Source: Bacilli bacterium (lineage in GTDB: Bacteria; Bacillota_I; Bacilli_A; ML615J-28; CAG-698). From it: a stretch of 64,000 nucleotides of DNA. Every line of letters begins with the position of its first letter. Within the stretch, counting starts at the first letter, position 1. A program made the translations under genes and the position numbers. The stretch is taken from the NCBI GenBank assembly GCA_050953065.1, contig JBMNLZ010000002.1, positions 1 through 64,000 of the forward strand, read 5' to 3'. This document shows positions 7,393 through 34,467 of this stretch, one piece after another. The notes beneath the pieces are model-generated. The model saw only the letters and a program-made list of their open reading frames with translations. It was not told the origin of the DNA and did no database searches.

Positions 7393-7418
7393 GTTTTTAT
7401 TCCTCTTCTACAGTCCAG

Positions 7419-8793: not shown

Positions 8794-8927
8794 CGAAGAG
8801 TAAAATTAACTTGCTTAAAACCCCTATAAAGCCATTCTCTGCTATATTTTGGGCTGCTGTTATTGTGGTTATGGCTGTTTTCGGGCTGTTATTGAGAAGG
8901 AAGAAAGCAGACCTGAGAAAAAAGTAA
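8790..8927 (+). CDS. 45-aa single-TM peptide
   Basis: Read manually: MTKSKINLLKTPIKPFSAIFWAAVIVVMAVFGLLLRRKKADLRKK. Translationally coupled through ATGA. Confidence 0.45.
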   Translation: MTKSKINLLKTPIKPFSAIFWAAVIVVMAVFGLLLRRKKADLRKK

Positions 8928-9954: not shown

Positions 9955-10276
9955 TGTTCTTCCTTCCTTTAGCAAAAAGAAAGAAGATAAGTAATTAAAA
10001 ACCTTTTTATTTTTTTAGTAATGCACTTCCTCAAAGAATCCATCAAAGATCTGGCCTGAACTCTAGAGCCTGAAAATAAAGCTGTTTTTTAAAAAGAATG
10101 AAAACTATTACTGATAATGTTTTTATCAGTCCTTGATGGACTCAAGCAGAGAGCTCTGCTCAGGAATAGGGCATTAAAATGATATTCCAGACTTGCAGGT
10201 CAACCAGGAACCGCACTTCCTCAAGGAGTCCATCAAGGAACACAGAATATGGAGCTCGGCTTCGTGTGTGCAACTC

Positions 10277-10504
10277 TCAGCGTAGTTTAAAAAGACCGCG
10301 TTTAATTCCATCTTCTATAATAGAATTTATTTCAGAAAGACCAAATTCTTTTCCATGATCTGGATATTTCAAAATAAATGCTTGAGCAATTATTAAGGAA
10401 TTTGGAAGATCTCGATAATATGTTTTAGAGATGAAACTAGTAAGGTCATTAAAAACTAAATCGGATATTTTTTGTGGGACCATCATATACCAAAAGTCAA
10501 ACAC
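10277..10504 (-). CDS. Hypothetical protein
   Basis: 75-aa ORF. The start codon is uncertain. Confidence 0.45.
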   Translation of the reverse strand: MFDFWYMMVPQKISDLVFNDLTSFISKTYYRDLPNSLIIAQAFILKYPDHGKEFGLSEINSIIEDGIKRGLFKLR

Positions 10505-11241
10505 TATAACACCATGATGTTTTCCATGATGTGTATAAACCTGGTATACCTAAATTCCAAGCGAAAAAAAGCGTCTAACAATACTAGCATACATCTTATA
10601 TTATATAAATTGATGTATTTTCAATACTGCCAGACATCTTCAATCATTTTTCATGAATCTTTTTTCCTTCCCTTCTCAGATCTTCTGTTCTCTTATCCTT
10701 CTCTTCGAGTAACACTTGAAGCTCTTCAATCTGAGCTCTCAATTATGGGGATATAAGCTATAATTCTCTCTAAATATTGCCTGTGTGTTTCTCATAGTTT
10801 TTTTTCTGTTAACGTATACCTTATCGGCAGGTAAAATATCAAGGTCGAAATATCAAGGCTCTAGCTAACGATTTCTAAAAGTGTGTCTATAGTCTTTGGA
10901 ATGACTTGTGAACAAAACACATAGGTACGTTTAACCGATAGCGTTTATTTTCGTTGAGTGAACAAAACCACTAAATTTTTCAGGTTCAATTTGTCATTTT
11001 TGAAGGATGCCTTAAATTTCAGTTTTCCACAGGAAATGGAGGTTAAAACCAGACATGTATATAAGTACAGTATTACGAATTGTTTAAGATTTCATACTAT
11101 TTTTGTGAAAATGAAAGTTTATTTTTGACAGGCAATTGCAGGAAGAATTTAGAGGATTTTGTAAAGGTGTGTTTCCTATAGAGCCTGTGGAACTCTTGAA
11201 ATCTATATTTTCTTCATTCCTAAATAATTTATCGGTTTTAC

Positions 11242-11355
11242 TTATTCTTTCTGATGTTTGATAAGCTTGTATATCCGCGTCATTATAAGAATAAAAAGAA
11301 GAATTACTAATATGACCAGTATAAGTTCTGCTGTGCTTATAATCGAGACCCCCAT
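11242..11355 (-). CDS. 37-aa single-TM peptide
   Basis: Read manually: MGVSIISTAELILVILVILLFILIMTRIYKLIKHQKE. Confidence 0.4.
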   Translation of the reverse strand: MGVSIISTAELILVILVILLFILIMTRIYKLIKHQKE

Positions 11356-11452
11356 GATTTGTTATTATTATTGATATTATTTTTATTTTTAATATATTAT
11401 TTGCTATCCTTATTTCCTTACATATGTTCCTTCTTCAGCTAAATAGACCCAA

Positions 11453-11482
11453 GTTTCAATCCCTCTAAGGTCTGATTTTAAC
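11453..11482 (-). CRISPR. Solitary 30-bp CRISPR repeat
   Basis: GTTTCAATCCCTCTAAGGTCTGATTTTAAC, with 1 and 3 mismatches to the mini-array repeats. Confidence 0.8.
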
Positions 11483-11635
11483 TATTGCTCTGGAGCATGT
11501 AAGGAAGCATACCGCCGAAAAATGAAAAAAGAAGACATGGTATAAGTTTTGATAATATGATTCCTAACGGTTTTGTTTTTTTGAATATTCTGCGGCAAGT
11601 AATGACAATAAAACAAATATCAATAACCTACTTAG
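11483..11635 (-). promoter_or_regulatory. Putative leader/promoter of the 30-bp repeat locus
   Basis: AT-rich spacer region between the two repeat families. Minus-strand AAAACTTATA near 11541-11550 resembles a BRE/TATA element. Confidence 0.4.
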
Positions 11636-14600
11636 GTTTCAATCCTTGTTTTAATGGATCTTGCTCTCGAATCCTCTGGAAATCTCCGACCCACATATCA
11701 CGGTCTAGTTTCAATCCTTGTTTTAATGGATCTTGCTCTCGAATCTCATACACAAAATACTTCTTTCCTTTGTATTCTGTAGTTTCAATCCTTGTTTTAA
11801 TGGATCTTGCTCTCGAATTATACTTTGCGTGCATAGTATGTATTGTACACGGGGGTTTCAATCCTTGTTTTAATGGATCTTGCTCTCGAATAAAGTTTTC
11901 AAAGGCAAAAAAACAGGACTGCTACCAAAGTTTCAATCCTTGTTTTAATGGATCTTGCTCTCGAATAGGATCACGATAGCTAACAGCCGCAAGAGTGAAC
12001 GCTAGTTTCAATCCTTGTTTTAATGGATCTTGCTCTCGAATAGGCATTTGTGGCCTGTCTGCAATGTCAGCCTGGAGTTTCAATCCTTGTTTTAATGGAT
12101 CTTGCTCTCGAATTTTCTGATTCTATCAACCTGCAATCTGGCAATGACCTGTTTCAATCCTTGTTTTAATGGATCTTGCTCTCGAATTTTTGGCAGCCGG
12201 AGGTATGGTGGTATCATGCGTGATATGTTTCAATCCTTGTTTTAATGGATCTTGCTCTCGAATAGTAATTAAAAAGCATAGAGAGAGTCCGTACACAGAT
12301 GGTTTCAATCCTTGTTTTAATGGATCTTGCTCTCGAATTCTTTGAGAAGGGTTTCTCGATACATACTTTTCGGTTTCAATCCTTGTTTTAATGGATCTTG
12401 CTCTCGAATAGGTATATTTAATACTTTCTATTGTATGATACAATAGAGTTTCAATCCTTGTTTTAATGGATCTTGCTCTCGAATAATCAGTTACACAAGG
12501 CATGTAATAGGCGAATCATTGTTTCAATCCTTGTTTTAATGGATCTTGCTCTCGAATTCGTATCGGATATGTATACTTTGAAGGAAAGAATTTGTTTCAA
12601 TCCTTGTTTTAATGGATCTTGCTCTCGAATTTTTACCCCACCCATGAACATTTTCCCGTAATCGGTTTCAATCCTTGTTTTAATGGATCTTGCTCTCGAA
12701 TCAGAGTCTATAATTAGCTGTTGAGCTAATTCCTTATGTTTCAATCCTTGTTTTAATGGATCTTGCTCTCGAATTCGCTAGTTTCAATCAAGTTAGAATA
12801 CCCTTTCAAGTTTCAATCCTTGTTTTAATGGATCTTGCTCTCGAATGCGGGGCTGCCTGTTTCCGCGTATCAAGGATACGAGAGTTTCAATCCTTGTTTT
12901 AATGGATCTTGCTCTCGAATAAGGTGAAAACACGCCAGAAGAGACAGTCGAGGAGCTGTTTCAATCCTTGTTTTAATGGATCTTGCTCTCGAATCAACTT
13001 TCGCCCTGACATATCGGGCAGCTCTCTGCGTTTCAATCCTTGTTTTAATGGATCTTGCTCTCGAATCAAGATCTCCCTCTTCCAAGTCCATCTCAGTTTG
13101 AGAGGTTTCAATCCTTGTTTTAATGGATCTTGCTCTCGAATTCGTTGAAAACATTTAGAAAAAAAGAAAGATGACGTGTTTCAATCCTTGTTTTAATGGA
13201 TCTTGCTCTCGAATGTAGGATTCCCTCTCGCAGAACATTTTGACAATTCGGTTTCAATCCTTGTTTTAATGGATCTTGCTCTCGAATTATAATCCAGCAG
13301 TTTCAGTTAATTGTCAGTACCAGTTTCAATCCTTGTTTTAATGGATCTTGCTCTCGAATAAGGCGAGTCAGGAGATATTACCTATTCACTGACTCGTTTC
13401 AATCCTTGTTTTAATGGATCTTGCTCTCGAATAAGTTAATATAATAATGAGTGCAACTGTTCTTGATTATACGTTTCAATCCTTGTTTTAATGGATCTTG
13501 CTCTCGAATTTATATAGAGCCTTTTTTCAGGTCTTATATTAATTGTTTCAATCCTTGTTTTAATGGATCTTGCTCTCGAATTTCAACCCATAGCTTACTC
13601 AACATAAGCCCGTTTTTGTTTCAATCCTTGTTTTAATGGATCTTGCTCTCGAATAATTCCGGCACATTGAACTTATCCCAATACTCCTTTCTAGTTTCAA
13701 TCCTTGTTTTAATGGATCTTGCTCTCGAATCCTGCAGTGGAGAGAGAAAGACGGCAAACTAGTGAGTTTCAATCCTTGTTTTAATGGATCTTGCTCTCGA
13801 ATCCGTTAATTGACCAGTTAGTAAACCCTATTAGGTTTCAATCCTTGTTTTAATGGATCTTGCTCTCGAATGGGTTTTCAATAGCTATTCTAGGGATAGG
13901 AGCAGGTTTCAATCCTTGTTTTAATGGATCTTGCTCTCGAATTTCACCTCCTTTTCCAGTTTTTTAGGGTTTTCAGAGGTTTCAATCCTTGTTTTAATGG
14001 ATCTTGCTCTCGAATTGGTATGTAGTCATGTTCTGTCCTCAGTGTCTATAGAGTTTCAATCCTTGTTTTAATGGATCTTGCTCTCGAATACTTACAAATA
14101 TTCCGACATCTCAGCCTCTAGTTTTAAGTTTCAATCCTTGTTTTAATGGATCTTGCTCTCGAATGATAATCGAGTATGGTACAGGCTCAAATCAGAGTAA
14201 GTTTCAATCCTTGTTTTAATGGATCTTGCTCTCGAATCTGAATGTCTACCCTTATCAAGTTCATAGACTGACATTAGTTTCAATCCTTGTTTTAATGGAT
14301 CTTGCTCTCGAATACGGAAACATACAACCCGGATAAGAAAGGAAAATCCGGGTTTCAATCCTTGTTTTAATGGATCTTGCTCTCGAATAAAATGGAAGAA
14401 TTACAAAGACAGTATGATGAATAGTTTCAATCCTTGTTTTAATGGATCTTGCTCTCGAATCTATTGAATCGGCTGCCAGTCGAATAGGACAGGCAAGTTT
14501 CAATCCTTGTTTTAATGGATCTTGCTCTCGAATCGGCAGGTATGGATCTCGGCGAAGCGGCAGATATCGGTTTCAATCCTTGTTTTAATGGATCTTGCTC

Positions 14601-17600
14601 TCGAATAAGCTTAATGGTTGACGTTTGCAAAGAATGTGGAGTGTTTCAATCCTTGTTTTAATGGATCTTGCTCTCGAATTTCTATGGCTTCAGCGTAGAG
14701 TTTATTATCTTGTGGTTTCAATCCTTGTTTTAATGGATCTTGCTCTCGAATCAATATTCTCTGTTTTGAACTGAGTAATTGCACTTTGGTTTCAATCCTT
14801 GTTTTAATGGATCTTGCTCTCGAATATTTCAAGAGCGCAACAAGTTCAGCCGCGAGTTCAATGTTTCAATCCTTGTTTTAATGGATCTTGCTCTCGAATC
14901 AGAGTTGCTTTTCGATTCAGCAACCCCGTTACCGTAAGTTTCAATCCTTGTTTTAATGGATCTTGCTCTCGAATATTTCAAGAGCGCAACAAGTTCAGCC
15001 GCGAGTTCAATGTTTCAATCCTTGTTTTAATGGATCTTGCTCTCGAATCAGAGTTGCTTTTCGATTCAGCAACCCCGTTACCGTAAGTTTCAATCCTTGT
15101 TTTAATGGATCTTGCTCTCGAATAAGTGTATATACACGTATATACGATTTAAAAAAGATAGGTTTCAATCCTTGTTTTAATGGATCTTGCTCTCGAATTG
15201 TCGTCGTCAAAAATCCGGTTCTCGTTTTCTGGATTGGTTTCAATCCTTGTTTTAATGGATCTTGCTCTCGAATACCATACCACTCGACAAAATAGAACCC
15301 TGGCATGAAGGTTTCAATCCTTGTTTTAATGGATCTTGCTCTCGAATAGGGGTCTTCTCGCTGTGCCTCCGCGCTCCCTGAGAGTTTCAATCCTTGTTTT
15401 AATGGATCTTGCTCTCGAATTTAATACTCAGGCTATGAAGAAGGAAGAATTACGGGAGTTTCAATCCTTGTTTTAATGGATCTTGCTCTCGAATCAGATG
15501 CCCTGGTCCGAAAGTAGAGGATCCCCGGATGTTTCAATCCTTGTTTTAATGGATCTTGCTCTCGAATTTTTCCAGTCTACCTTTTTATAGACTGCTGCGA
15601 CGTTTCAATCCTTGTTTTAATGGATCTTGCTCTCGAATCATCTTCAATTCTTTGAAACCTTCAAATTAAAAGTTTCAATCCTTGTTTTAATGGATCTTGC
15701 TCTCGAATAATGTGTAAGGCTGAAATCCAGAAACTCCTTACATTGTTTCAATCCTTGTTTTAATGGATCTTGCTCTCGAATGAGAATACACTTACAGCTA
15801 TCTCCTGGAGTCTCACTAGTTTCAATCCTTGTTTTAATGGATCTTGCTCTCGAATTCTCGCCCGTCGTCTGTCATGCCTGGGCGGTAGGGGAGTTTCAAT
15901 CCTTGTTTTAATGGATCTTGCTCTCGAATGCGTCAAGTTCGGTTTTGACAAGACCGAATTCCGAAGTTTCAATCCTTGTTTTAATGGATCTTGCTCTCGA
16001 ATCCGAAAGCGTTTTTTGTAACTGCAACGCGGGAAAAAGTTTCAATCCTTGTTTTAATGGATCTTGCTCTCGAATCTCTAACAATTTCCTTGATAGCTCC
16101 GAGGTCCGAGATGGTTTCAATCCTTGTTTTAATGGATCTTGCTCTCGAATCAATCGGAGAGAAAGTCGCAGTCGGATTTGAGAGACTGTTTCAATCCTTG
16201 TTTTAATGGATCTTGCTCTCGAATACCCGATTTTGAGGTTGCCGCTCTTGTTCCTGAAAAGTTTCAATCCTTGTTTTAATGGATCTTGCTCTCGAATTTC
16301 TACGAGATCAGCCCTGTGCTGAATATCTTTAGGTTTCAATCCTTGTTTTAATGGATCTTGCTCTCGAATTATTGTTTTTCTATCTCATCTACTCCCAGGT
16401 CAGTTTCAATCCTTGTTTTAATGGATCTTGCTCTCGAATTGACAATACACAAATCATCTGTAAAACTCAATATCAGGTTTCAATCCTTGTTTTAATGGAT
16501 CTTGCTCTCGAATAATTCGGCTTCTCCGTGCCTTCACAGTCTCTGTTTCAATCCTTGTTTTAATGGATCTTGCTCTCGAATTGTAAGACCTGAAACTTTC
16601 AGGCTTAACGAACAGAGTTTCAATCCTTGTTTTAATGGATCTTGCTCTCGAATAGGGTGCAGTTGAGGTTGCAGAAGAAATCACAGAAAGTTTCAATCCT
16701 TGTTTTAATGGATCTTGCTCTCGAATCACCGATCGCCGACCTCGGGCATTTTGAAAGGATAGTTTCAATCCTTGTTTTAATGGATCTTGCTCTCGAATCT
16801 CTTCTTCATCGTCAACCTCTTTGAAAAAATCGGTTTCAATCCTTGTTTTAATGGATCTTGCTCTCGAATGCGAATTGAGGTCAAATCGATGGCAAAAACT
16901 AACGTGTTTCAATCCTTGTTTTAATGGATCTTGCTCTCGAATTCTTAACAAAGGGACAGATATAAGAGCATCACCGTGTTTCAATCCTTGTTTTAATGGA
17001 TCTTGCTCTCGAATCCAAACTAGTCACAGTACATCCACATCTAATAGAAAGGTTTCAATCCTTGTTTTAATGGATCTTGCTCTCGAATATATCCCGATTG
17101 GGGCTTAAGTTCCACACTTCTTTTGTTTCAATCCTTGTTTTAATGGATCTTGCTCTCGAATGATAAGGTTCTTTTATCGTCTTTTCCAACTCTTTTAGTT
17201 TCAATCCTTGTTTTAATGGATCTTGCTCTCGAATGCGTTTTACTAGATTCCTTTACGCAGCCAACATATTGTTTCAATCCTTGTTTTAATGGATCTTGCT
17301 CTCGAATGGGAAAGTGAGGACATCCCCCAACCCGACGGTTCTATGTTTCAATCCTTGTTTTAATGGATCTTGCTCTCGAATTCTACACAACGGAAGACCC
17401 AGGCACAGAGCCGCTTAGTTTCAATCCTTGTTTTAATGGATCTTGCTCTCGAATGCCAATCGTATATATAGTTTATGGCTACTAATAATGTTTCAATCCT
17501 TGTTTTAATGGATCTTGCTCTCGAATATCTTACTACAATATCTATATTGTATCTATTACTAGTTTCAATCCTTGTTTTAATGGATCTTGCTCTCGAATCA

Positions 17601-18752
17601 TGGAACGGATCAGCATATCAAACAACCGGAGTATAGTTTCAATCCTTGTTTTAATGGATCTTGCTCTCGAATCTGACAGTATATTTGTATTTATTTCTTT
17701 ATATTATGTTTCAATCCTTGTTTTAATGGATCTTGCTCTCGAATTTTTTAAGTTTTTTGAGGAAATTTGAAGAAATGTCAGTTTCAATCCTTGTTTTAAT
17801 GGATCTTGCTCTCGAATAAGTCCTCAAGAAGGACATTCTAATCAAAATCAAAGTTTCAATCCTTGTTTTAATGGATCTTGCTCTCGAATAGATTCAAACG
17901 GCCTGAAGAATACCGCCCAAAAGTACGTTTCAATCCTTGTTTTAATGGATCTTGCTCTCGAATTCTTTCTCAATAATTTTTATTACTTCCCCTCTCTAGT
18001 TTCAATCCTTGTTTTAATGGATCTTGCTCTCGAATATCCAAAATTCATTCTCAATGACATTGACGAGCTTCTGTTTCAATCCTTGTTTTAATGGATCTTG
18101 CTCTCGAATACTGTATTTGTTTTTCTGTGAGCTCTTCCCCTACTTGTTTCAATCCTTGTTTTAATGGATCTTGCTCTCGAATAAAAAAGAGAAGTTGCCA
18201 GTAAGTAACTAAGCTTGGTTTCAATCCTTGTTTTAATGGATCTTGCTCTCGAATCAAATACGCAAAGGACCCGACTTTTGCGGAAGTAAGTTTCAATCCT
18301 TGTTTTAATGGATCTTGCTCTCGAATTAGATTCCAGGGATTGAACGCTGTATTTTTTTGAGGTTTCAATCCTTGTTTTAATGGATCTTGCTCTCGAATAT
18401 ATTTGAAGGTTCAGAACCTAAATTGGTAGACGTGTTTCAATCCTTGTTTTAATGGATCTTGCTCTCGAATTATATAAAAGTTTGTATCTGATATATCAGA
18501 AACAACGTTTCAATCCTTGTTTTAATGGATCTTGCTCTCGAATATATCCACTATGGTTGTCTGAGCACCAACCCCTATGGTTTCAATCCTTGTTTTAATG
18601 GATCTTGCTCTCGAATACAAGAGTATAGGATAAGTTGCCCTGCTCGTATTGTGGTTTCAATCCTTGTTTTAATGGATCTTGCTCTCGAATGCCTCTCTGG
18701 TATGTCCCACTTGACAAAAAAGTGTGTTTCAATCCTTGTTTTAATGGATCTT
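11636..18752 (-). CRISPR. CRISPR array, 37-bp repeat, 97 full repeats plus 1 truncated, 97 spacers (about 31-40 bp)
   Basis: GTTTCAATCCTTGTTTTAATGGATCTTGCTCTCGAAT repeated about every 73 bp, a Methanosarcina-type repeat. The minus strand ends in ATTGAAAC (8-nt handle). The last repeat (18726-18752) is cut off after 27 nt. Counted manually. Confidence 0.98.
14789..15086. repeat. Tandem duplication of a two-spacer block (149-bp unit)
   Basis: Spacer 14826-14862 equals 14975-15011, and spacer 14900-14937 equals 15049-15086. Confidence 0.9.
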
Positions 18753-19240
18753 ATGATGATGCAGTACTTCCTGTTAACATCCAAAAGAGGGGACAAGTAA
18801 CCAATGATTTAATCATTGTTATGACTCCTAACGCACGTCCTAAGTCTGGAAGTATTGACGTACAAAATGCTTCATATGCAGAATTAAAGGCAGAAGTGAA
18901 AGCCTTATGTCATGGTAAACACTCTAAAGAAGCACGTGCTCATTTTGGTAATTATACCCAAATGAAAACTGCTGTTATGCGAGATTTACTACGAGAATGG
19001 CAAGCATCTCATGAATCACCAGTAAATACTTTTAAATTTGAAGAAGTACGTTCTAAATTAGAATCTGGAGATTTTGAAGTACTTACTATTGGAATAGATC
19101 GAAATATTTATAACGAAGCATTGAAATATATCTTTCATGGGATAACTTTACTACAAAACAAGGTTATTAATTTGAGTGCTACGAAAGCTCCCACGACAGA
19201 AGAATTGGAAGCTTTAGTAGAAAAATTTACTAGACAATAG
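18753..19240 (+). CDS. 5'-truncated putative ubiquitin-like domain fusion protein
   Basis: The real part of ORF 18635..19240 starts at DDAVLP. DDAVLP...NDLIIVMTPNARPKSG resembles the end of a beta-grasp fold, and it is the first gene of an E2/JAB/E1 operon. Confidence 0.5.
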
Positions 19241-19242
19241 TA

Positions 19243-20463
19243 ATGGATAGCAATGTAATACATAATCTATATTCTATTTATAAGGGAAAATTAGATAGGG
19301 GGGAGTATATTATCCCCCCTTTATATATTATAGAAGATATTATTATAAATAGATATGGTGATGACAGGGTATCTGTTTCTAATAACTCTTTTAATGATTT
19401 TCCACTGGATAATTTTAATAATATAAAAGAGTTTGAATGGTTTAAAAGGTATTTAGAGTATTTAAATATGTACTATGATGGGGATATATATGATATAATA
19501 TCTAATGATAGTTTTTTAGTAGAAAACCGATATATTCCAGTATATGATTTAACTAAAGAATTTATAGTATATTACCCAGAAATAGTAATTACTAATAGTA
19601 CTCAAGAATCACATGTAATTACAGATTTATATGTTAAATTTTCTTTTAATTATTTTGGGAAATTATTTGACTCTTTTAAAATAAACAGGGGCTCTTATTC
19701 TGAGCAAGAATGGTATAGTAATTATAAGCATTCTCATACTAACGGTTCTTTTCCAGATGATATATATTACTTTAATGCGCCTTGTTTAGGAGGAGGTCCT
19801 ATAGTTTCTACTATAGCAGTTTTAAGGAATACAACCTTGGAGAATTTTTCAGAATTAGAAATAGTACAATTTCTTATATTGATGGATGATTTTCTAAAAT
19901 GGGAATCTTTAGAAGGTGTGCCATACAAGTATATCCGAAATATTGGTAACAGCGGGAGCCATACTATAGTTCCAAATAGATCGCCTACAGAGTTAATACA
20001 CTATGAGAAGCGAGTTTTGGAACATATAGTAAAAGAAACTGATTTTTTGGAACATATTAAAGAGCATGCTTTTTTAATACCAACAGTTAAAGATGGTACA
20101 CCTAAATATAGTATATTGTTTGATGAGTGGAAATTACAAAAAATATTATTTTCTTATTATCAAGAAACGATAAATCTTTTTGGTGATACTCTTACTAATT
20201 TGTTAATGTATAAAGATTCTTTAAATAGAGTGTATTATAAAAGAGGGATTACAAATAATTTTATACCTATTGAAAGGTATGAAGGTCTGACTCTATTTAA
20301 TTTTAAAGGACAGGACGTAAAATTAAAAATATATAAGACAACTTCTGAAGAAGTTAAAAATTTTTGTATTAAACCAGAAATACTTTACTACCTAATAAAT
20401 AAGTTGGAAATGCTAATAAATTTAAATAATGCAGAAAACAGTTTTTCAAAATCAGAATTATAA
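19243..20463 (+). CDS. Putative prokaryotic E2-like (UBC-fold) protein
   Basis: Y-K-H163-S-H...P-C181-L-G-G-G-P resembles the E2 HPN/HPH...CL(G) active site. Supported by JAB and ThiF neighbours. Confidence 0.55.
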   Translation: MDSNVIHNLYSIYKGKLDRGEYIIPPLYIIEDIIINRYGDDRVSVSNNSFNDFPLDNFNNIKEFEWFKRYLEYLNMYYDGDIYDIISNDSFLVENRYIPVYDLTKEFIVYYPEIVITNSTQESHVITDLYVKFSFNYFGKLFDSFKINRGSYSEQEWYSNYKHSHTNGSFPDDIYYFNAPCLGGGPIVSTIAVLRNTTLENFSELEIVQFLILMDDFLKWESLEGVPYKYIRNIGNSGSHTIVPNRSPTELIHYEKRVLEHIVKETDFLEHIKEHAFLIPTVKDGTPKYSILFDEWKLQKILFSYYQETINLFGDTLTNLLMYKDSLNRVYYKRGITNNFIPIERYEGLTLFNFKGQDVKLKIYKTTSEEVKNFCIKPEILYYLINKLEMLINLNNAENSFSKSEL

Positions 20464-21697
20464 TAATTTTAAAAACCCTGTTAGGGGTAATGATATATCT
20501 ACAGAAGTAAAACCCAAGGAACTACCAATACCCTTAGTTAATAAAACAGAGGGTAATATTAAATTAACAGTTACCGAGGGTTTGATCAATAAGATAAGAT
20601 ATATTTGTGGGGAATTTCCTACCAAAGAATGGAGTGGGGTGTTATTTTATGATATTAAAGGTTCTTTAAAAAAGCCTAATTTAATAGAAATAAAAGCCTT
20701 TGATTTTTATCCTTTAGACTTGGGTAGTGCTAGTTATACAGAATTTGAATACTCTCCAGATTTTGCAGCTTATATAGCTAGAAATCCATTATTAATGGAT
20801 CATCAAATGGGGTTGATACATTCTCATAATAACATGAGCGTATTTTTTAGTGGAACAGATACTGCAACATTACAGGAACAAGCCCCTTTATATAAGAAGT
20901 TTCTTAGTGTTATTGTTAATAATAGACTGGATATAGTGGCTAAATTAGCAGTATATACTGAATCCGATATAATTAACAATACTGAAATTATTAGTACAAC
21001 TAATTATCAAGATATAGATTATACTAATAAGAAAATTAATAATAGTTCTAAAATAACTAAGACCTTTAAAGAAAAAGAGGTTTGGGTGTATGATTGTGAT
21101 ATTATTAAAGAGGGTAGGGAAATAGTAGATGAAGAATTTAAAGGGTTTGTAGAAGATTTAAAAACAAATGCTACTAAACAATCTTTTAATAATCCAGTAA
21201 TTAATACTACGCAACCTCTTCAAAGGGAACTGTTTAGGGATTCTACCTCTCCTTATGTAGTAAATAATGTAAAACATCCTGATGATAAAGTACAAACTTT
21301 TATATGCTGCTTAGCTTCTCAAAACTTCTTTTATACCCCTGTAAAAACATATAGTCTTAAAGAAAATTTAATGGCTGCCATGAGAGCAGTACCTAAGACT
21401 ATAGATAGGGATTTATATATTAATATGTTAGAGTGTTCTATAGATTTATTGTTGGATTACATGGAAATACATCTAGAAGAAGATATAATAGATATCTTAG
21501 ATTCTGCTTACCAAGGGTTAAAAATTATAGGTATTCATAATAATAAGGATTTAAGTAGTCTTGTATTTGAGGTTATAGAATCCACTCTAAATAGTTACTT
21601 GGAAGATCTTGTAGAGACAGAGGGATTTGTATATGAAGCCCCTCCTGAAGATGCTTATGAATATATTAATATAGTAAAACCACATAAAATAAACTAA
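20429..21697 (+). CDS. JAB/MPN+ (JAMM) metalloprotease domain protein
   Basis: EWSGVLFY plus an exact JAMM motif H-S-H-x7-S-x2-D (HSHNNMSVFFSGTD). Confidence 0.85.
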   Translation: MQKTVFQNQNYNNFKNPVRGNDISTEVKPKELPIPLVNKTEGNIKLTVTEGLINKIRYICGEFPTKEWSGVLFYDIKGSLKKPNLIEIKAFDFYPLDLGSASYTEFEYSPDFAAYIARNPLLMDHQMGLIHSHNNMSVFFSGTDTATLQEQAPLYKKFLSVIVNNRLDIVAKLAVYTESDIINNTEIISTTNYQDIDYTNKKINNSSKITKTFKEKEVWVYDCDIIKEGREIVDEEFKGFVEDLKTNATKQSFNNPVINTTQPLQRELFRDSTSPYVVNNVKHPDDKVQTFICCLASQNFFYTPVKTYSLKENLMAAMRAVPKTIDRDLYINMLECSIDLLLDYMEIHLEEDIIDILDSAYQGLKIIGIHNNKDLSSLVFEVIESTLNSYLEDLVETEGFVYEAPPEDAYEYINIVKPHKIN

Positions 21698-21702
21698 TAG
21701 TT

Positions 21703-22755
21703 ATGGATATTTCAGCATTTGATCCTAATATGCAAGAAGAGCTTCGTAGATTATTTCCACAAGAAATTAATGAAGAAGATAATACTACAGTATCTTATGA
21801 TATAGCAGAACCAGATCTTAATGAACCTAGTATTGAAGATGTTTTAGAAGTAGACAATAATCAAGATATAGAAGAAGCAATATTCGTGGAAGATGGGGAA
21901 GCAATATTAGTAGCAGATGAGGAAGATATAGAGGAGGTTGTTGAAGATGATGATTCCCTAATTAATGCTCTTAATCTTTTAGATATTAATAACGAAGTTC
22001 CTACTGAAACTCCTGTTGAAGAATCTATAGAAGATATTACAGAAGAAACTCAAATATCTGCACAATATAATAGATTCAAGGGAGCTGATTGGTTTGAAAT
22101 TGTACAAGAGCAGAATGTTATTTTAGCAGGATTAGGAGGTATAGGTAGTTGGGTAAGTTTATTTCTCTCCAGATTAGGACCTAAAACAATATCTTTATAT
22201 GATGATGATCGTTTTGAGGAACATAATTTGTCTGGACAAGCTTTTAGAATTAAGAGTTTAGGTAGATATAAAGTAGAAGAAGCTGCCTCAATAGCAACAG
22301 ATTTTAGTAATTATACTAGGTGTTATTCTTTTAGCAGTAAGTACACTGAAAGAAATAGTACTAGTAAAATAATGATATGTGGTTTTGATAACATGGGTGC
22401 TAGAAAATTATTTTATAATAAATGGAAGGAAAATATTATTCAAGAAGAATCTCACGAGTATCTGTTTATTGATGGAAGATTAACAGCAGATATGTTTCAA
22501 TTATTTTGTATACAAGGTAATGATACATATGTTCAAGGTGAGTATGAAAGGAATTGGTTATTTGAAGACGAAGATGCTGATGTTACTGATTGTACTTTTA
22601 GACAAACATCCCACATTGCAGCCATGTTAGGTACTTATATAACTACATATTTTACTAATTTTTGTAGTAATCTATCTCCTGACAATTTTCCAAAGAGAAT
22701 ACCTTGGTTTATGGAGTATAATTCAATAGTTAATACATATGATTTTAAATACTAG
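21703..22755 (+). CDS. ThiF/E1-like adenylyltransferase with acidic N-terminal extension
   Basis: Motifs AGLGGIGS, YDDDRFEEHNLSGQ, K, GFDNMGAR and IDGR. Candidate catalytic Cys in VTDCTFRQT. Confidence 0.9.
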   Translation: MDISAFDPNMQEELRRLFPQEINEEDNTTVSYDIAEPDLNEPSIEDVLEVDNNQDIEEAIFVEDGEAILVADEEDIEEVVEDDDSLINALNLLDINNEVPTETPVEESIEDITEETQISAQYNRFKGADWFEIVQEQNVILAGLGGIGSWVSLFLSRLGPKTISLYDDDRFEEHNLSGQAFRIKSLGRYKVEEAASIATDFSNYTRCYSFSSKYTERNSTSKIMICGFDNMGARKLFYNKWKENIIQEESHEYLFIDGRLTADMFQLFCIQGNDTYVQGEYERNWLFEDEDADVTDCTFRQTSHIAAMLGTYITTYFTNFCSNLSPDNFPKRIPWFMEYNSIVNTYDFKY

Positions 22756-23434
22756 TATTATTGATAATAGTCTTGACCAACTTCCCGTAAATTTACGACC
22801 TTATAGTGTTAGTTATGTTAGAAATTATGGAAATAGAGTACCATCGGGTAAAAATGTAATAGTATTACCAGATATTAAAATACCTATTTTTGTAGATAAG
22901 GAAGTATATCTTACTGATAATGGTATGGAAAAATTTATCATAACAGTATCTAAAGGTACCAACGTGTCTTACAAGACTTTTAGTAAAAAGTTATTAGGCA
23001 CTTTTAAAAATGGCACTGGTAGCTCACCACATTTAACATTATTACAATTAAAAGATTATTACTATTTTATTGGTAAAGGTATTATAACAGATGAGAATTT
23101 TAATCCATTAGTGTTAGTTACTTTTGATAATGTTAGTGATAAATATGATGGGGATAGGAGAAGTAATATTTTAAAAATGGAATGCGTGGATGTGTATTAT
23201 AGTAGAGTTATATTTTCTGAGGATTTCATAAAAAATCAAATCCCCATGTTTAATAATATCACCAAGAAGATAATGCCTTATTTCATGGGATATGCTATAA
23301 AACAGCATATTAAAAATGATTTAAATATTTGGGGAAGGACAATTGTGGATTCTTCAAGAAGCATTGATTCATATAATGATATTATATTAGAAAATTTAGA
23401 TGAGTTTAAAACAGAATTTATTAGGGGATTATAA
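22739..23434 (+). CDS. Hypothetical phage protein
   Basis: 231-aa ORF overlapping both neighbours. Confidence 0.7.
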   Translation: MILNTSIIDNSLDQLPVNLRPYSVSYVRNYGNRVPSGKNVIVLPDIKIPIFVDKEVYLTDNGMEKFIITVSKGTNVSYKTFSKKLLGTFKNGTGSSPHLTLLQLKDYYYFIGKGIITDENFNPLVLVTFDNVSDKYDGDRRSNILKMECVDVYYSRVIFSEDFIKNQIPMFNNITKKIMPYFMGYAIKQHIKNDLNIWGRTIVDSSRSIDSYNDIILENLDEFKTEFIRGL

Positions 23435-24098
23435 TGTATTTATTAAAGATAGTACTTTAATCCCTTTATTAAATATTTTACAAGAAGAATATTCTAATAA
23501 AATAGTATTTCCAGAGAAAAACAATGTATTCAAAGCATTTAAAACAACTTCTTTAAAAGATTTAAAGATAATAGTACTTGGGAAGGATCCATATCCTCAA
23601 AAGGGGTATGCAACAGGGTTGGCCTTTGCCAATCCCCCAGGTGCAAATCCTATAAGCCCTAGTTTAGAAGTTATTAGAGAAAATATATATTTTAACTTCT
23701 ATCAAGAGAATTATTTAGATATGCCATTAGGAGACCCCTATGATTATCAATTTGATTACACTCTTGAAACTTGGGCCAAGCAAGGTGTTTTACTTTTGAA
23801 TAGTGCTTTGACAGTGGTTGAACATCTTCCAGGAAGTCATGGTAATATTTGGTATAATTTCATCAAGGAACTTTTAATAAATATATCAGATACTAATACA
23901 GGTATTATATATTTCTTATTAGGAGGAGATGCTAAACAATTTAAATCTTTTATAGGTAAGTATAATTATATATTTGAATATGAACATCCTGCTTATGCTG
24001 TTAGAAAAGGGATTAATTGGGAGTTTGAGGGTTTTGTAGAAGCTAATCATATATTGAATAAGCTTTACAATACCGAAATTAAATGGTTAAATGAATAA
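23400..24098 (+). CDS. ung: Uracil-DNA glycosylase, family 1
   Basis: Motifs VFKAF, LGKDPYP, ATGLAF, SPSL, WAKQGVLLLNSALTV and HPA. Confidence 0.9.
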   Translation: MSLKQNLLGDYNVFIKDSTLIPLLNILQEEYSNKIVFPEKNNVFKAFKTTSLKDLKIIVLGKDPYPQKGYATGLAFANPPGANPISPSLEVIRENIYFNFYQENYLDMPLGDPYDYQFDYTLETWAKQGVLLLNSALTVVEHLPGSHGNIWYNFIKELLINISDTNTGIIYFLLGGDAKQFKSFIGKYNYIFEYEHPAYAVRKGINWEFEGFVEANHILNKLYNTEIKWLNE

Positions 24099-24108
24099 AA
24101 AGATACAA

Positions 24109-27100
24109 AGGAACTGTAACTGTATATGTTTTAGATTCAGTAATACCAGATTTAGAAATTGTTACTGTATAACTAACAACTGTATCAACAGATGGTCTAG
24201 CAACTACATGACCATAGTTATTAATAACTCCAGGATTACCCGATGAAAAACTAATCGTATAACCACTGTATAATTTTCTGTATTGATATTCTGCTTTAAC
24301 CATTTTAGCAAATACAGGAGTGTAAAGTCCTGATTCTCTTAATTCTTGAGGACAATTCTTACCCATAAAATGATTATGTTGTTTTACTCTATCTGTTGCA
24401 AGTGAATATCTCATTAAGATATCAGCAGTTAATTTAGCAGTCCTATGCCAAGTCATATATAAATCATTGTCTTCATGTTGACACATTTCAATTCCTATTC
24501 CATTCATATTACCACCAGTAATACATGTTACACCGTAAGTAGTATTGTAGTATGTGCTTCCTGCTGCTCTAGTTCCATCTCCTGCATGCCATGCTACACT
24601 TGATTCTTTAACAACACTGTATACAGAATTAGCATCAACACAATAATGGATAGATACATCAGCTGTTGAACAATAACTAGCAGTATTACGAGCACCTGCT
24701 CCTACATTATTATTTCCAGTATGATGGATTACAACATACCAAACCGATGACATTGCTTGATGATATCGCCCATAGAATTCAGTATTAACAGAATGAGTAC
24801 CTGGCCAGAAATATGAAACACTTCCTCTAGTTTCTTCTGTTTTAGTTGTATTACCATATGTTAGAACATTTCTAGATAAAGTCCTACTTACTAAATATTG
24901 TTCTAACCAATTAAATACTGCTGTATGATGAACTACATTTCCTGAACCAACTATAATATAAGCTGTAGCTTGAATTGTTGGATTTGAAATTAGGTTAGCA
25001 GTAATTACTGCTGTACCTGAACCAACTCCAGTAACAAGCCCTGTTGAAGAGATTGTTGCAATTCCTGTATCGCTACTTGTCCATGTAACGTTAGTATCAC
25101 CTGTAGTACTTGAAATTGAAAGTTGAGTAGTACTTCCAACACTAATTACAGACCCACCTGAATATAGAATTGAAATTTCAGCTGAATAGTCTTCATATAC
25201 TTTAATTGCATATGTTCCTCTTTGAGAAGAATCTGTTTTTAATACAGCTGTAATTGTTGCATACCCTACACTCTTTCCATCTACTTTTCCATAATCTCCA
25301 ACTGTAGCTACAGTTGTATTACTACTTGACCAATTATAGTTATATCTACTAGTAGCACCAGTTATTGTTAACTCAATTGATTGGCCTAAAATAATTGAAG
25401 GTGAAGAACCTATTAAAAGTTTTAAGTCCAAAGGTCCTGTTTTAGTTCCAGGAGCTGGATACGTATTAGCTGCTACTGTAATATTAACAGTTGCTTTAAT
25501 AGTAGGATCTGATACTAATGAAACAGTAATTGTTGCAGAACCTATTCCTTTAGCTGTAACTACTCCTGAAGAAGATACTAAAGCAACTGCTGTACTACTT
25601 GTACTATATGTTACTGCATAATTAGTTGTTCCTGTAATTGTTGGAGTAATCTTAGTTTGTTCATCAACAACTAAAGCATTTTTACCAATCGCTAAAGTAA
25701 TAGTTATAGTAGGCGCTGGATTTGTAACTGTTACTGCACATGTTGCTTTTAATGCTGTATTAGCAACTGAAGTTGCTGTAATTGTTGCACTACCAGCTGC
25801 AACTGCTGTTACAACACCACTTGAAGATACTGTTGCTACACTTGTATTACTACTTGTCCAAGTAACTGCTGTATTAGTTAAATTAGAAACTGTAGCAGTT
25901 AATGTTTTTGTTTGGCCCTTTATAATACTGGCTGTTGCATCTGAAATTGTAATTGCAGGTGCATTAACAACTGTTACAACACACACAGCAGTTAAACTAG
26001 TATTACCCGCTGCTGTTGCTGTGATTGTTGCTGTACCTGTTGCTACCGCTGTAACTTTACCACTACTATCAACTGTTGCAACTGCAACATTATTACTTGT
26101 CCAATTAACCGCTGTATTAGTTAGATTTAAAACTGTAGCAGTTAATGTTTTAGTTTCTCCTTTTATAATACTTGCTGTTGCATCTGAGATTGTAATTGTC
26201 GGTGCATTAACAACAGTAATCATATAAGTCGCTGTTACTTGAAAAGCTGCAATTGAAGTTACTGTAATTGTAGTTGTCCCTGCTGCTTTTGCAGTTACAA
26301 GTCCTGTTGCAGAAACTGTTGCAACACCCGTATTACTACTTGTCCAACTAACTGCTTGACTAGCAGTACTTGGGTTAACAGTGGCTGTTAACTGAGTAGT
26401 TGCACCAACTGTAATAGTTTTATTACCAGTTATACTTATTGAAGAAGGCATTCCAATTACTTTTACTGAAACGCTATCAAATATATCAGGGTTACTTACT
26501 AGAGTTACTGTGATTTTAACATTTCCACCAGCAACACCTGTTACCCAACCATTTTGATCAACTGTTGCAATTGTTTGATTTTCTGAACTATATAAAACAG
26601 CCCCTGTTGCATCACTTGGTGTAAATTCATGAGTTAGTTTAATTTTACTTCCAGCCAAAACCTCAGTCGTGCCTGATAATGTAATCCCAGTTACAGAAGT
26701 ATCGCTAGATGAAGTGTCTCTTACAACAATTGTACATTTAGCATAAATTGTAGGATCTGCTTTAAGTGTTGCTACTATATTCACTATTCCAGCAGCTACA
26801 CCTGTTACTTTACCTGTTTGATCAACTGTTGCAACTTCAGTATCTTCACTTGACCAAGTTACAGCAAAATCTAAATTGACATCTGGTGTTACAGTTAATT
26901 GACTTATTTCTCCCACATCTAGTATGAAATCACCAGAAATAGTAAGTGCTGTAATTATCGGAGTAATGCCTGGAGTATCATCTCCTGGATCATCTCCTGG
27001 GTCAGTTCCTGGATCATCATTTGCTGCTACGATAATATTAACTGTTACCATTTTGTTTCCATAAATCGCAACAGCAGTAATACTAGCAGAACCAGCACCA

Positions 27101-27636
27101 ACTGCTACAACTAAACCAGTGTTTGTAACTGTTGCAACACTTGGATTAGTACTAATCCAAGTAACTAGCCCATCATAGTCTTCGTTATTTTCTTTAAATT
27201 GTAATTGAACTACTTCTCCTATTTGATACTCCTTAAGTCCACCTTGAACAACAATAGAATAATCTTTTTCTACGTTTTCACCGTTTCCATCATTACCATC
27301 CCCACCATCGCCAGTGCCTGATGATGGATTAACTATTACTACAACATTAGCCGAAATATTATGGCCAACTAGCGTTGCCTTAATTGAAGTAATACCTTCT
27401 TTTAACGCAACAACTTCTCCTGTTGCACTAACAGTTATTATTGTATCATCATATTCGCTATAACTTATTTGATAGTCAGTAACTCCAACTACCATCGGTA
27501 ATAGCTGATAAGTTTTACCTTCTTCTAACTCAAGATTTGATGAGCCAAAAGAAAGAGAAATATTGCTCATCGTTGGTAAACAACCAACCAAAAACAATAA
27601 ACTAAAACTAAACAAAATTAGAATAATTTTTTTCAT
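24109..27636 (-). CDS. Lipoprotein with Big_2 Ig repeats and C-terminal N-acetylmuramoyl-L-alanine amidase (Amidase_2); 3' end truncated at the junction
   Basis: LVGC lipobox, repeated WxSSNxxVATV, and amidase motifs VIHHTG, IHYCVD, AWHAGDG, GIGIEMC and KQHNHFMGKNCP. The ORF tail LYLFIHLTI (to 24079) is read from the phage segment. Confidence 0.88.
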
Positions 27637-27757
27637 AACTTTTACCCCACTTTTTAATTCTATTAATACCTGTTTACGCTTATATTATATCATATTTATT
27701 TTTTTTAAAAAAGATATTTATATAAAAGCAAAAATCCTTTTATATTAATTAAGGGAT

Positions 27758-27787
27758 AAAAAAGTTGGTGTTTTTACCAACTTTTTT
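27758..27787 (-). terminator. Intrinsic terminator
   Basis: AAAAAAGTTGGT-GTTTTT-ACCAACTTTTTT hairpin after the stop at 27800. Confidence 0.7.
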
Positions 27788-27799
27788 ATGTAACCTTTT

Positions 27800-30700
27800 T
27801 TATAATACTATTTCTGATCTATCCCTTTTACCACTAACAGCTGCTCCTACAGTACCAGGAACTGTAACTCTATAAGTTTTAGATTCAGTTATTCCTGCTT
27901 TAGAAACTTTAATTGTATAACTTACTACTGTATCAGAAGCAGGTTTAGAAATTACATGCCCATAATTATTAATAATTGATGTATTGCCTGATGAGAAAGT
28001 AATTGTAAAAGTATTATATAATGTTCTATATTGATATTCTGCTTTAACCATCTTAGCAAACACTTCAGTATAAAGTCCTGATTCTCTTAATTCTTGAGGA
28101 CAGTTCTTACCTGAGAAATGGTTATGTTGTTTAACTCTACTTGTAGGAAGTGAATATCTTGCTAAAATATCCGCAGTTAATTTAGCTGTTCTATGCCATG
28201 TCATAAATAGGTCATTACCTTGGTCTTGAGTCATTTCAATACCAATTCCATTAGATCCACCACCTGTAATACAAGTTGCACCATATGTAGAGTTATAATA
28301 AGTACTTCCTGCTGGTCGCATTCCATCTCCTGCATGCCATGCTACACTTGATTCTTTAACTCCACTATATACAGATTTAGCATCAACACAATAATGGATA
28401 GATACATCCGCTGTTGAACAATATCTAGCTGTCATACGAGCATCAGCTCCTAAGTTATTATTTCCAGTATGGTGAATTACAACATACCAAACTTTTGTCA
28501 TTGCATTATGATAACGTCCATAATATTCTTTATTAATTGTGTTTGTACCTGGCCAGAAATATGAAACGCTTCCTAGAGTTCTTTCAGTTTTACGTACATT
28601 TCCATAAGTGTAAACATTTCTAGATAATGTTCTAGTAACTAAGTATTGTTCTATCCAACTAAACACTGCACCATAATGAACAACTCCACCTGAACCACTT
28701 GAACCAACTGTTAAAATAATTGTACCTCTTCCCTTTGAAGGATGAGTTACTGTGATTGTTGCAGATCCAGTTGCTAAAGCTGAAATTGTTCCATATGAAG
28801 AAACTGTTGCAATACTACTATTGCTTGATGAGAATGTACATTCAAGTCTTGATACATCATTTCCGCTTGAATCTTTAACATATAATTGATAACCACTTGC
28901 TCCTACTGGTATAGTTCCAGTTGGACTTTGTGTGATTGTCAAAGTTCCTGCAGGAGGAGGTGTTGTGCCACCACCAGATCCAATTGTTAAAACAATTGAG
29001 CCTGTTCCTTTTGAAGGATGAGTTACAGTAATTGTTGCAGTTCCATTTGCTAAAGCTGAAATTGTTCCATATGAAGAAACTGTTGCAACACTAGAATTAC
29101 TTGATGAGAATGTACATTCAAGTCTTGAAATACTAGCTCCACTTGAATCGTTTACATATATTTGATAACCACTTGCTCCTACTGCGATTGTTCCAGTTGG
29201 ACTTTGTGTTATTGTTAAAGAACCACTAGGGGCTGCAGTAACTGTTACTGCACATGTTGCTTTTAATGCTGTATTAGCAACTGAAGTTGCTGTAATTGTT
29301 GCATTACCAGCTGCAACTGCTGTTACAACACCACTTGAAGATACTGTTGCTACACTTGTATTACTACTTGTCCAAGTAACTGCTGTATTAGTTAAATTAG
29401 AAACTGTAGCAGTTAATGTTTTTGTTTGGCCCTTTATAATACTGGCTGTTGCATCTGAAATTGTAATTGCAGGTGCATTAACAACTGTTACTAAACAATT
29501 CGCTTTTAAACTACCATTAGCAGCACTTGTTGCTGTGATTGTTGCAGTGCCTATTGCAACTGCTGTTACTTTACCACTACTATCAACTGTTGCTACACTT
29601 GTATTACTACTTGTCCAATTAACCGCTGTATTAGTTAGATTTAAAACTGTAGCAGTTAATGTTTTTGTTTGACCCTTCACTATACTTGCTGCCCCATCTG
29701 AAATTGTAATTGTAGGCGCACTAACAACTGTAATTGCAAATGAACCTGTTACTTGATTAGATGCAAGCGAAGTTGCTGTTATTACAGCAGTCCCTGTCGC
29801 TTTTGCAGTTACAAGTCCTGTTGCAGAAACTATAGCAACGCTTGTATTACTACTTGTCCAACTAACTGCTTGACTAGCAGTAATTGGATTAACAGTAGCT
29901 GTTAATTGAGCAGTTCCGTTAACTGTAATAGTTGTATTACCAGTTATACCTATTGAAGAAGGCATTCCAATTACTTTTACTGAAACGCTATCAAATATAT
30001 TAGGGTTATTTACTAGGGTAACTGTAATTTTAACAGATCCACCAGCAACACCTGTTACCCAACCATTTTGGTCAACTGTTGCAATTGTTTGATTTTCTGA
30101 ACTATATAAAACAGCTCCTGTTGCTTCACTTGGTGTAAATTCATGAGTTAGTTTAATTTTACTTCTAGCCAAAACTTCAGTCGTACCTGATAATGTTATA
30201 CCAGTCACAACAGTTTCACTTGATGAAGTATCTCTTACAACCATTGTACATTTAGCATAGATAGTAGGATCCGCTTTAAGTGTTGCTACTATATTTACTA
30301 TTCCAGCAGCTACACCTATAACTTTACCATTTATATCTACTGTTGCAACTTCAGTATCTTCGCTTGACCAAGTAACATCAAAATCTAAATTGACATCTGG
30401 TGTTACAGTTAATTGACTTATTTCTCCCACATCTAGTATAAAATCACCAGAAATAGTAAGTGCTGTAATAATTGGAGTAATGATTGGATCACCACCGCCA
30501 GCAACTGTAATATTAACTGTTACCGTTTTGTTCCCATAGATTGCAGTAATGCTACTAGAACCACCGCTAACTGCTAAAATTAAACCAGTGCTTGATACTG
30601 TTACAACATTAGGATTAGTACTAATCCAAGTAACTGCACCATCATAATCTTCGTTGTTTTCTTTAAATTGTAATTGAGCAGTTTCTCCTACTTGATAATC

Positions 30701-31087: not shown

Positions 31088-31135
31088 AATAAACCCTCAC
31101 TTTTTCTTATATTTATTTTTTATATTTTTTTTAAA

Positions 31136-34456: not shown

Positions 34457-34467
34457 TTTAATTCTTT

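Follow-up and report, generated by a model that had tools for sequence, protein, structure and literature searches.

The DNA analysed here is the first 64,000 nucleotides (the window) of contig C2 in the genome assembly of a Bacilli bacterium, and this report concerns a gene block of 5.35 kb within it, at 18753-24106. By the sequence and order of its genes this block comes from an uncultured crAss-like phage of anaerobic digesters, whose genome it represents with one piece of the replication-gene module. The phage family carries a full kit made up of a ubiquitin-like protein (Ubl), a protein with a UBC-like core, a JAMM peptidase, a ThiF-type activating enzyme (E1), the conserved protein of the fifth open reading frame (ORF5) and a uracil-DNA glycosylase (UDG). 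We consider it probable that the family runs a Ubl conjugation relay begun by JAB cleavage of the Ubl precursor, and that the block in the window is a misassembled fragment.

The six gene families and their occurrence in phages

Few viruses of the human gut are as abundant as the crAss-like phages, yet the genes of their replication modules are mostly unnamed. In the window, the ORFs of the block (Table 1) are co-directional and abut or overlap one another through the UDG gene. The original prediction had described four adjoining co-directional genes for Ubl, conjugating enzyme (E2), JAB and E1, and the layout and motifs of ORF2 to ORF4 were as it described them. ORF4 and ORF2 each matched 74 of 50,697 phage records (29 Bacteroides crAss-like, 29 Flavobacterium, 12 uncultured and 4 others), with identities of 38-43% for ORF4 and 25-34% for ORF2. 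The block was collinear with gp79-gp78-gp77-gp76-gp75-gp74 of crAss001 and also with Steigviridae records, bearing out the phage origin that had been proposed. In crAss001, primase and helicase genes lie upstream of the block and genes for a resolvase, an exonuclease and a ribonucleotide reductase lie downstream, two further records being alike; the DNA-metabolism setting next to ung, also proposed earlier, was thus seen in the phages. The fragment has the gene content and order of Crassvirales across the replication-module genes that it spans, and it carries no capsid, portal or terminase gene. Public labels in crAss001 are hypothetical protein for gp79, gp78 and gp75, 'metalloprotease domain' for gp77, 'thiamine biosynthesis ThiF' for gp76 and UDG for gp74, and the label 'E1 enzyme family protein' is used in one public record.

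A scan of IMG/VR revealed 258 loci encoding an ORF4 relative, 80 of which were kept. The phage synteny survey suggested with the original prediction was made by profile iteration on 82 phage loci, many of them cut by contig ends, and the gp79, gp78, gp77, gp76, gp75 and gp74 families were found in 74, 76, 80, 82, 80 and 73 loci, respectively, always in the same order and on one strand. Flavobacterium phage Fpv1 has an ORF2-like gene with ThiF and UDG genes as neighbours; there the UDG gene lies upstream, with an opposite-strand gene between. The ORF5 protein showed no match in Pfam, PHROG, NCBIfam, PADLOC, PDB or Atlas.

The gp79 family was analyzed through its full-length members, since the first 65 codons of the gene, about two thirds of the beta-grasp domain, are gone from the window. 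The remnant holds the last 32 beta-grasp residues, which close with P-K-S-G (G codon 18848-18850), and behind them the C-terminal extension. Homology of the PKSG frame to phage proteins starts only at D, 18755; upstream of this position the frame stays open to a TTG at 18635 through CRISPR (clustered regularly interspaced short palindromic repeats) repeats only, and the sole in-frame ATG past the junction is at 18821. The ATG at 18753 was rejected as a start for this gene because it lies in another frame that reaches a stop 15 codons on.

Among 42 relatives of the remnant, 29 were 225-227 residues long and 74-96% identical to it, and the N-termini of the relatives provide the strands and helix absent from the window. 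The metagenome contigs encoding proteins of this identity reach 49.8 and 58.7 kb. The protein P0210 matched the gp79-family profile with a probability of 99.4%. In the family alignment an N-terminal domain of about 88 residues ends in K-x-x-S-G and is followed by about 130 residues, the Gly being invariant (24/24). The AlphaFold2 model of a full-length member (locus L018) had a predicted local distance difference test (pLDDT) of 93-97 over residues 1-80, which form a strand-strand-helix-strand-strand fold, with a floppy tail and a helical domain after it. Foldseek against PDB matched this model with probability 1.00 to ubiquitin, SUMO1, NEDD8 and the DIX and FERM F1 domains, and likewise to 8tyx_A, the Ubl in the structure of a bacterial Ubl-deubiquitinase complex; template modelling scores reached 0.73 on target length. 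No Ubl family of Pfam or NCBIfam matched any of the 24 members. The model and its matches indicate that the gp79-family protein is a beta-grasp Ubl precursor with an invariant Ser-Gly at the end of the domain. The phage family therefore belongs with the ubiquitin-like beta-grasp modifiers, as the fold check suggested earlier had been expected to show, while the window holds no intact domain. The beta-grasp strand ending in PKSG that had been assigned to the first gene is accordingly true of the family, whereas the window gene is cut and the ATG at 18753 is out of its frame; the claim of a complete system in the window fails, since the Ubl gene there begins at residue 66 of 226.

ORF3 carries the metal site of JAB/MPN+ (JAMM) peptidases. 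The JAMM residues E67, H131-S-H133, S141 and D144 were invariant in 26/26 aligned homologues, confirming the exact motif noted earlier. The Pfam Prok-JAB model gave 17.3 bits, under its cut-off of 25, and the ORF3 profile matched CSN5 (E 0.032) and archaeal JAMM1 (E 0.27) only weakly.

ORF4 is a member of the E1/ThiF/MoeB family, matching Pfam ThiF with 58.6 bits against a cut-off of 28.1, and the assignment of the fourth gene as a ThiF/E1 protein with GxGGxG and nucleotide motifs was upheld. Its motifs are G143-x-G-G-x-G148, D167/D169, N175..Q179, K190, D229-N230 and R234; the nucleotide-binding positions (GxGGxG, D, N..Q, K and D-N..R) were invariant in 26/26 sequences, as were C226 and C297. 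The ORF4 profile found 55 PDB sequences at E <= 0.001, the best being UBA5 (3.9e-11), with MccB (5.5e-11), Cap2 (2e-5), BubCD (6e-4), PaaA, TcdA, Uba1/6/7, ThiF, the NAE1 partner and MoeB also found. A second catalytic-Cys domain or a ubiquitin-fold domain was not seen in ORF4. C297, 68 residues past the D-N motif, is a candidate for the thioester Cys of the E1. The N-terminal tail of the E1 (21703-22050 in the window, compared with loci L003-L082) is rich in Asp/Glu and of variable length between phages, being nearly absent in some and exceeding 150 residues in others. A complex model of the L018 E1 adenylation domain with Ubl residues 1-89 scored 0.30 against a mark of 0.32 and was used neither way.

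In ORF2, twelve columns were invariant in 26 sequences, including Y161, S164, H165, C181, G183 and G185, and H163 was kept in at least 90% of them. C181 stands within a conserved P-C-x-G-x-G-P motif (26/26 sequences). The AlphaFold2 model of ORF2 was confident in the core only (pLDDT 85-94, residues 100-222). Its elements are helix 26-38, strands 104-118, 123-136 and 146-149/151-153, and helices 186-195 and 204-219, with a low-confidence insert between helix 26-38 and the four strands; C181 and the His motif lie in the loop between strand 151-153 and helix 186-195. In a fold search other than Foldseek, 19 of the 50 matches listed were titled E2, UEV or RWD domain, among them Ubc9, Tsg101, Ubc13, Ube2K, UbcH7, UbcH5b, Ube2W and the GCN2 RWD domain. 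Cap2 (chain residues 9-157) and the BubCD-BubB-BubA complex were listed as well, and several more of the listed complexes presumably contain domains of E2, UEV or RWD type. A UBC-like fold has an N-terminal helix, a four-stranded antiparallel meander and further helices, and the model of ORF2 follows this plan. Taken together, the enrichment of the fold list, the succession of helices and strands and the place of the Cys give moderate support to ORF2 being an E2-like enzyme.

At the sequence level the ORF2 family stands apart. It matched no Pfam or NCBIfam family, its profile gave only a chance-level match to PDB sequences, and no precomputed Pfam domain was present on 57 ORF2 relatives of another collection. 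Atlas gave only leads below 0.9, one cluster (score 0.76) having Prok-E2_D in 15% of its members. The ORF2 core family comprised 3143 representative clusters at E <= 0.001, 772 of them at E <= 1e-30. Prok-E2_D had one match in 400 genomes of the phylum, and the ORF2 core profile matched this single protein with a probability of 0.1%. Neither the Ubl nor the E2-like family is present in a curated library. Separately, in a bacterium of the same class (L089, 1456-3372) a Prok-E2_D gene adjoins a 298-residue gene and an ORF with the E1-type D-N..R motif, and these genes may be another mobile E1/E2 module.

Table 1 Coordinates of the features of the gene block and of its two joints in the window
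Feature	Position	Strand	Remarks
Left junction	18727..18752		Last CRISPR repeat, about 26-27 of 37 bases kept, fused directly to phage DNA
Ubl-precursor remnant (crAss001 gp79 family)	18755..19240	+	Residues 66-226 of a native protein of 226 residues
E2-like protein, gp78 family (ORF2), 406 residues	19243..20463	+	phrog_15310; UBC-like core at residues 98-238 (19534-19956)
Motif sites of ORF2	Cys181 codon 19783-19785; Y-x-H-S-H 19723-19737	+	From the translation
JAB/MPN+ metallopeptidase, gp77 family (ORF3), 422 residues	20429..21697	+	JAMM motif; C-terminal helical region
JAMM sites of ORF3	E67 codon 20627-20629; H-S-H-x7-S-x2-D 20819-20860	+	From the translation
ThiF-type E1, gp76 family (ORF4), 350 residues	21703..22755	+	Acidic variable tail, about 1-115, then adenylation domain
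Sites of ORF4	GxGGxG 22129-22146; C226 codon 22378-22380; C297 codon 22591-22593	+	From the translation
Conserved protein, gp75 position (ORF5), 231 residues	22739..23434	+	Same position in 80/82 phage loci (profile iteration)
Family-1 uracil-DNA glycosylase, gp74 family, 232 residues	23400..24098	+	Pfam UDG 42.9 bits (cut-off 24.3); NCBIfam ung E 6e-42; phrog_12143
Right junction	24106..24107		Phage part stops 8 bases past the UDG stop; bacterial piece starts within the 3' end of an amidase gene

A predicted conjugation relay and its alternatives

The relay that these proteins would form begins with the JAB peptidase, which would cut the Ubl precursor after Ser-Gly. The E1 would then adenylate the exposed Gly and take the Ubl onto a Cys, for which C297 is the candidate; the tag would move to Cys181 of the E2-like protein and go on to lysines of targets, and the JAB peptidase may also take the tag off. 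The linkage to primase, helicase and UDG genes is kept in two phage groups, which points to targets among the replication or repair proteins of the phage, or among host factors that it encounters early in infection. We put forward, tentatively, that crAss-like phages, among them the cultured gut phages crAss001 and DAC15, have a Ubl conjugation pathway of their own, in which a phage E1 and a new kind of E2 put the Ubl ending in Ser-Gly on replication or repair proteins, with UDG and ORF5 as candidates, or on host defence proteins. If so, this would be a viral counterpart of the control of DNA repair by SUMO and ubiquitin. Reading gp79, gp78, gp77 and gp76 as a Ubl/E2/JAB/E1 kit gives four genes a testable function in a phage-host pair that can be grown. 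Bacterial relatives of this chemistry are known from anti-phage defence, and a version on the phage side prompts the question of its purpose, be it weapon, shield or regulation of how phage DNA is replicated.

Several results weigh against the relay. What was observed comprises folds, motifs, conservation and gene linkage, and from these sequences and models we infer cleavage, thioesters and transfer to targets. The Gly of the Ubl is internal, so that its activation would need cleavage. The ORF2 fold matches had Z scores of only 4.4-5.7, which are middling, and a Z below 8 can reflect no more than a frequent arrangement of elements. With the whole ORF2 model, Foldseek returned nothing from PDB at E <= 0.001, and none of the 26 ORF2 members matched the curated E2 models (UQ_con, Prok-E2_A to E) at E <= 1. 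Where classical E2s have an HPN motif, ORF2 has Y-x-H-S-H. The second gene thus has a UBC-like fold at middling Z and lies outside the curated sequence models; in the E2 assignment made earlier, the invariant C181 and the fold held, whereas E2 sequence similarity and an HPN motif were not found. Furthermore, Ubl, JAB and E1 are found together in sulfur-carrier pathways as well.

This last point leads to the first alternative, in which a ThiS/MoaD-like carrier is trimmed by the JAB peptidase, the E1 makes a thiocarboxylate and the sulfur enters a modification of phage nucleotides or DNA. JAB trimming of sulfur carriers is known for CysO/Mec+ and QbsE/QbsD. In NCBIfam the E1 was matched best by ThiF models (9e-15, far below the cut-offs), the genes sit among DNA-metabolism genes, and the Ubl/JAB/E1 triad is described for sulfur pathways in the treatment of these families in PMC1779556. 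On the other hand, Pfam and NCBIfam scans of the block found no rhodanese, cysteine desulfurase or sulfurtransferase domain, in agreement with the earlier statement that sulfur-transfer genes are missing here. The block always includes the protein with the UBC-like core, with its invariant Cys, for which sulfur pathways have no need, and the tail is Ser-Gly rather than Gly-Gly. We therefore regard a sulfur-carrier function as unlikely.

The second alternative keeps adenylation only: the E1 would act as MccB, PaaA or TcdA do, on a peptide or nucleotide, and the protein of about 400 residues would be a non-catalytic adaptor of UEV or RWD type. MccB, PaaA and TcdA indeed stand beside UBA5 among the best matches of the profile search in PDB, and many of the ORF2 fold matches are catalytically dead UEV and RWD domains. 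The Cys181 of the P-C-x-G-x-G-P motif, invariant in all 26 sequences, argues for catalysis, and the protein that bears it is always accompanied by a JAMM peptidase and by a beta-grasp protein whose Gly is invariant, making an adenylation-only module quite unlikely.

Comparison with known Ubl systems

Operons combining prokaryotic Ub-like, JAB, E1-like and E2-like genes on mobile DNA (class 6d) appear in the operon survey of Iyer, Burroughs and Aravind 2006 (PMC1779556). As that survey presents them, these operons share with the phage cassette the four-part set, the mobile DNA and a predicted Ubl to E1 to E2 relay with JAB (PMC1779556). Class 6d was later named PRTRC in NCBIfam (TIGR03734-03742). 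The ThiF protein of the cassette reached 25 bits against the TIGR03736 cut-off of 144.75 and the JAB protein 11.8 bits against 101.8 for TIGR03735 (PRTRC_A), so that neither is a PRTRC protein by these models. PRTRC_A gave weak matches in 16/26 JAB members (best E 0.0025), confined to the H-S-H region. No E2-like (0/26) or Ubl (0/24) member matched any PRTRC model at E <= 1, and PRTRC_ThiF and PRTRC_A were the only models to appear. The ParB domain of PRTRC was absent from all six cassette proteins in a Pfam scan. In contrast to PRTRC, the cassette Ubl is a precursor with a 130-residue extension, the E2-like core lies within a protein of about 400 residues, and the genes sit in the replication module of lytic crAss-like phages.

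Bacterial Ubl systems (Bil, CBASS Cap2/Cap3 and Bub) have reportedly been characterised from 2023 on. The Bil system (BilA Ubl, BilB E2, BilC JAB and BilD E1) has the same four activities, serves in anti-phage defence and is said to tag phage tail proteins; Bil is encoded by the host, whereas the cassette is encoded by phages. Using PADLOC models, only the E1 matched a Bil protein, BilD, and did so weakly (20.1 bits, E 5.3e-5). The JAB protein matched only the generic JAB model PDLC00890 (E 0.0093), and no PADLOC match was found for the E2-like protein or for the Ubl, which was scanned as the window remnant and not at full length. The best PADLOC matches of the E1 were the E1-E2 models of type II CBASS (an anti-phage signalling system based on cyclic oligonucleotides), down to 6e-9 and over the E1 part only (for example positions 368-463 of 602), and Cap2 turned up in both the sequence and the fold searches. 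The cassette nevertheless differs from type II CBASS: E1 and E2-like protein are separate genes, a CD-NTase/cyclase is absent from the block, and a dedicated beta-grasp Ubl is present, while CBASS conjugates the tail of the cyclase itself.

The TAPI protein of phages lambda and T1 has a Ub-like domain with a conserved Gly followed by a C-terminal domain, and TAPK, a JAB protein, is predicted to cut there, according to the account of tail proteins in PMC1779556. As in the cassette, a phage Ub-like domain with a conserved end Gly precedes a further domain and is accompanied by a JAB protein, and a relay started by precursor cleavage would mirror this TAPI/TAPK prediction by Iyer and co-authors as given in that account (PMC1779556). 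TAPI and TAPK belong to a tail gene cluster that has neither E1 nor E2, whereas the cassette has both enzymes and lies among replication genes.

The cassette is thus a separate variant, with its own Ubl and E2 families, a precursor Ubl, a JAB peptidase and a fixed place by UDG in phages of Steigviridae type. The Ubl-E1-E2-JAB kind has been known since 2006, and the crAss version described here is new. A literature search that covered papers outside subscription journals found none on a ubiquitin-like system in crAss-like phages.

The joints of the block in the bacterial contig

The assembly comprises 1.55 Mb in 3 contigs, with 29.5% guanine plus cytosine (GC) and 93.9% completeness. Three pieces make up the window: piece A (1-18752), the phage block (18753-24106) and piece B (from 24107). 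Piece A has 36-43% GC over its first 10 kb, against 29.5% for the genome, and the block has 28-33%, near the value of the genome itself. Piece B is an ordinary bacterial chromosome of low GC (29%), with four Big_2/amidase lipoprotein genes, tpiA, pgk, an ABC ATPase gene, mscS, parA, gidB, gidA, proC, proA, proB and fba. The view of the stretch as a phage contig was therefore abandoned. Most likely the phage fragment was joined by assembly between a CRISPR-array piece from a third organism and the true start of the bacterial contig, and contig C2 should be taken to represent the bacterium only beyond its first 24.1 kb.

Each of the three pieces is cut within a feature, namely a CRISPR repeat, the Ubl gene and an amidase gene. 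At the right joint, the last 18 codons of the minus-strand Big_2/amidase gene are swapped for 9 read-through codons: its nearest paralogue has 18 more residues after T-V-P, while the copy at the joint enters phage DNA for 9 codons and stops. Contig C1 of the same assembly opens with 19 kb at 50-66% GC; near 19.0 kb the value drops, over no more than 200 bases, to about 30%, which points to a second foreign contig tip. That C1 also begins with foreign DNA makes a chimeric tip likely for C2.

The block was found in 18 public runs of 9 studies, from digesters, manure, biogas fermenters and wastewater. Contigs of four public runs were aligned to window positions 16500-26500, and several short contig joints with sides of only about 21 bases were ignored. 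Among the contigs listed for these runs, all those bearing a block end aligned from exactly 18753 or to exactly 24106, and none spanned 18752/18753 or 24106/24107. To the right of 24182, runs X2, X3 and X10 had little or no cover, which was counted neither way. Two contigs ran past 18753, one of 5825 bases in run X10 and one of 999 bases in run X2, from two other studies, and their 471 and 780 letters upstream of this position were unlike the window. In run X1 the contigs from the bacterial flank (24323-25753) had 0 differing letters in 1461, and six block contigs had 24 in about 4700.

The alternative is that the block is truly integrated in the bacterial chromosome as a recent capture of a phage fragment beside a CRISPR array, perhaps for defence or as a decoy. 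Two results speak for it and against a chimera: the depth of block and bacterial flank in X1 is alike (about 3-5), which also fits one molecule, and block and genome have similar GC. The chimera call was made from assembled contigs. A real, very recent insertion nevertheless seems improbable to us, given the three features cut at the joints, the difference between flank and block contigs in X1, the foreign start of C1 and the occurrence of the E2-like family in 1 of 106 genomes of the order, this one, and in 0 of the 105 others. A prophage or defence island was rejected, as there is no integrase, there are no attachment repeats and genes are cut at both ends.

The CRISPR array (11636-18752) belongs to piece A and is separate from the gene cassette. 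All 97 of its full 37-base repeats are identical, the 98th is partial, and a degenerate repeat lies to the left of 11636. Its spacers are 31-40 bases long, and a perfect 149-base duplication at 14789-15124 makes two of them present twice. On the minus strand the last 8 bases of the repeat form a handle which we take to be typical of type I/III repeats. The handle on this strand and the degenerate repeat on the left imply that the leader is to be expected on the right, where the 98th repeat breaks off. The 96 spacers had zero matches to the block and the phage loci and only chance matches of 17-19 bases elsewhere in the genome, so that the joint is not explained by a link between spacer and protospacer. 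No cas genes were found in the 11.6 kb beside the array in piece A. The bacterium has a CRISPR-Cas locus of its own on contig C3 (498396-503134), where Cas1 adjoins an array whose repeat is a different one, AT-rich and about 30 bases long.

Elsewhere in piece A, only short ORFs without family matches lie at 6.9-11.6 kb, and an M20 peptidase gene (4768-6072) is split into 4768-5388 and 5503-6072. In piece B, the four tandem paralogues at 24079-38095 on the minus strand encode proteins of 1095-1185 residues, each with a signal peptide of lipoprotein type, some eight Big_2 domains and Amidase_2, and their GC of 34% is somewhat above that of their neighbours. Farther on, also on the minus strand, a surface protein of 2355 residues (53840-60907) has 12 BspA-type leucine-rich repeat stretches and 8 Listeria-Bacteroides repeats, and is adjoined by a BspA leucine-rich repeat protein of 358 residues (52503-53579).

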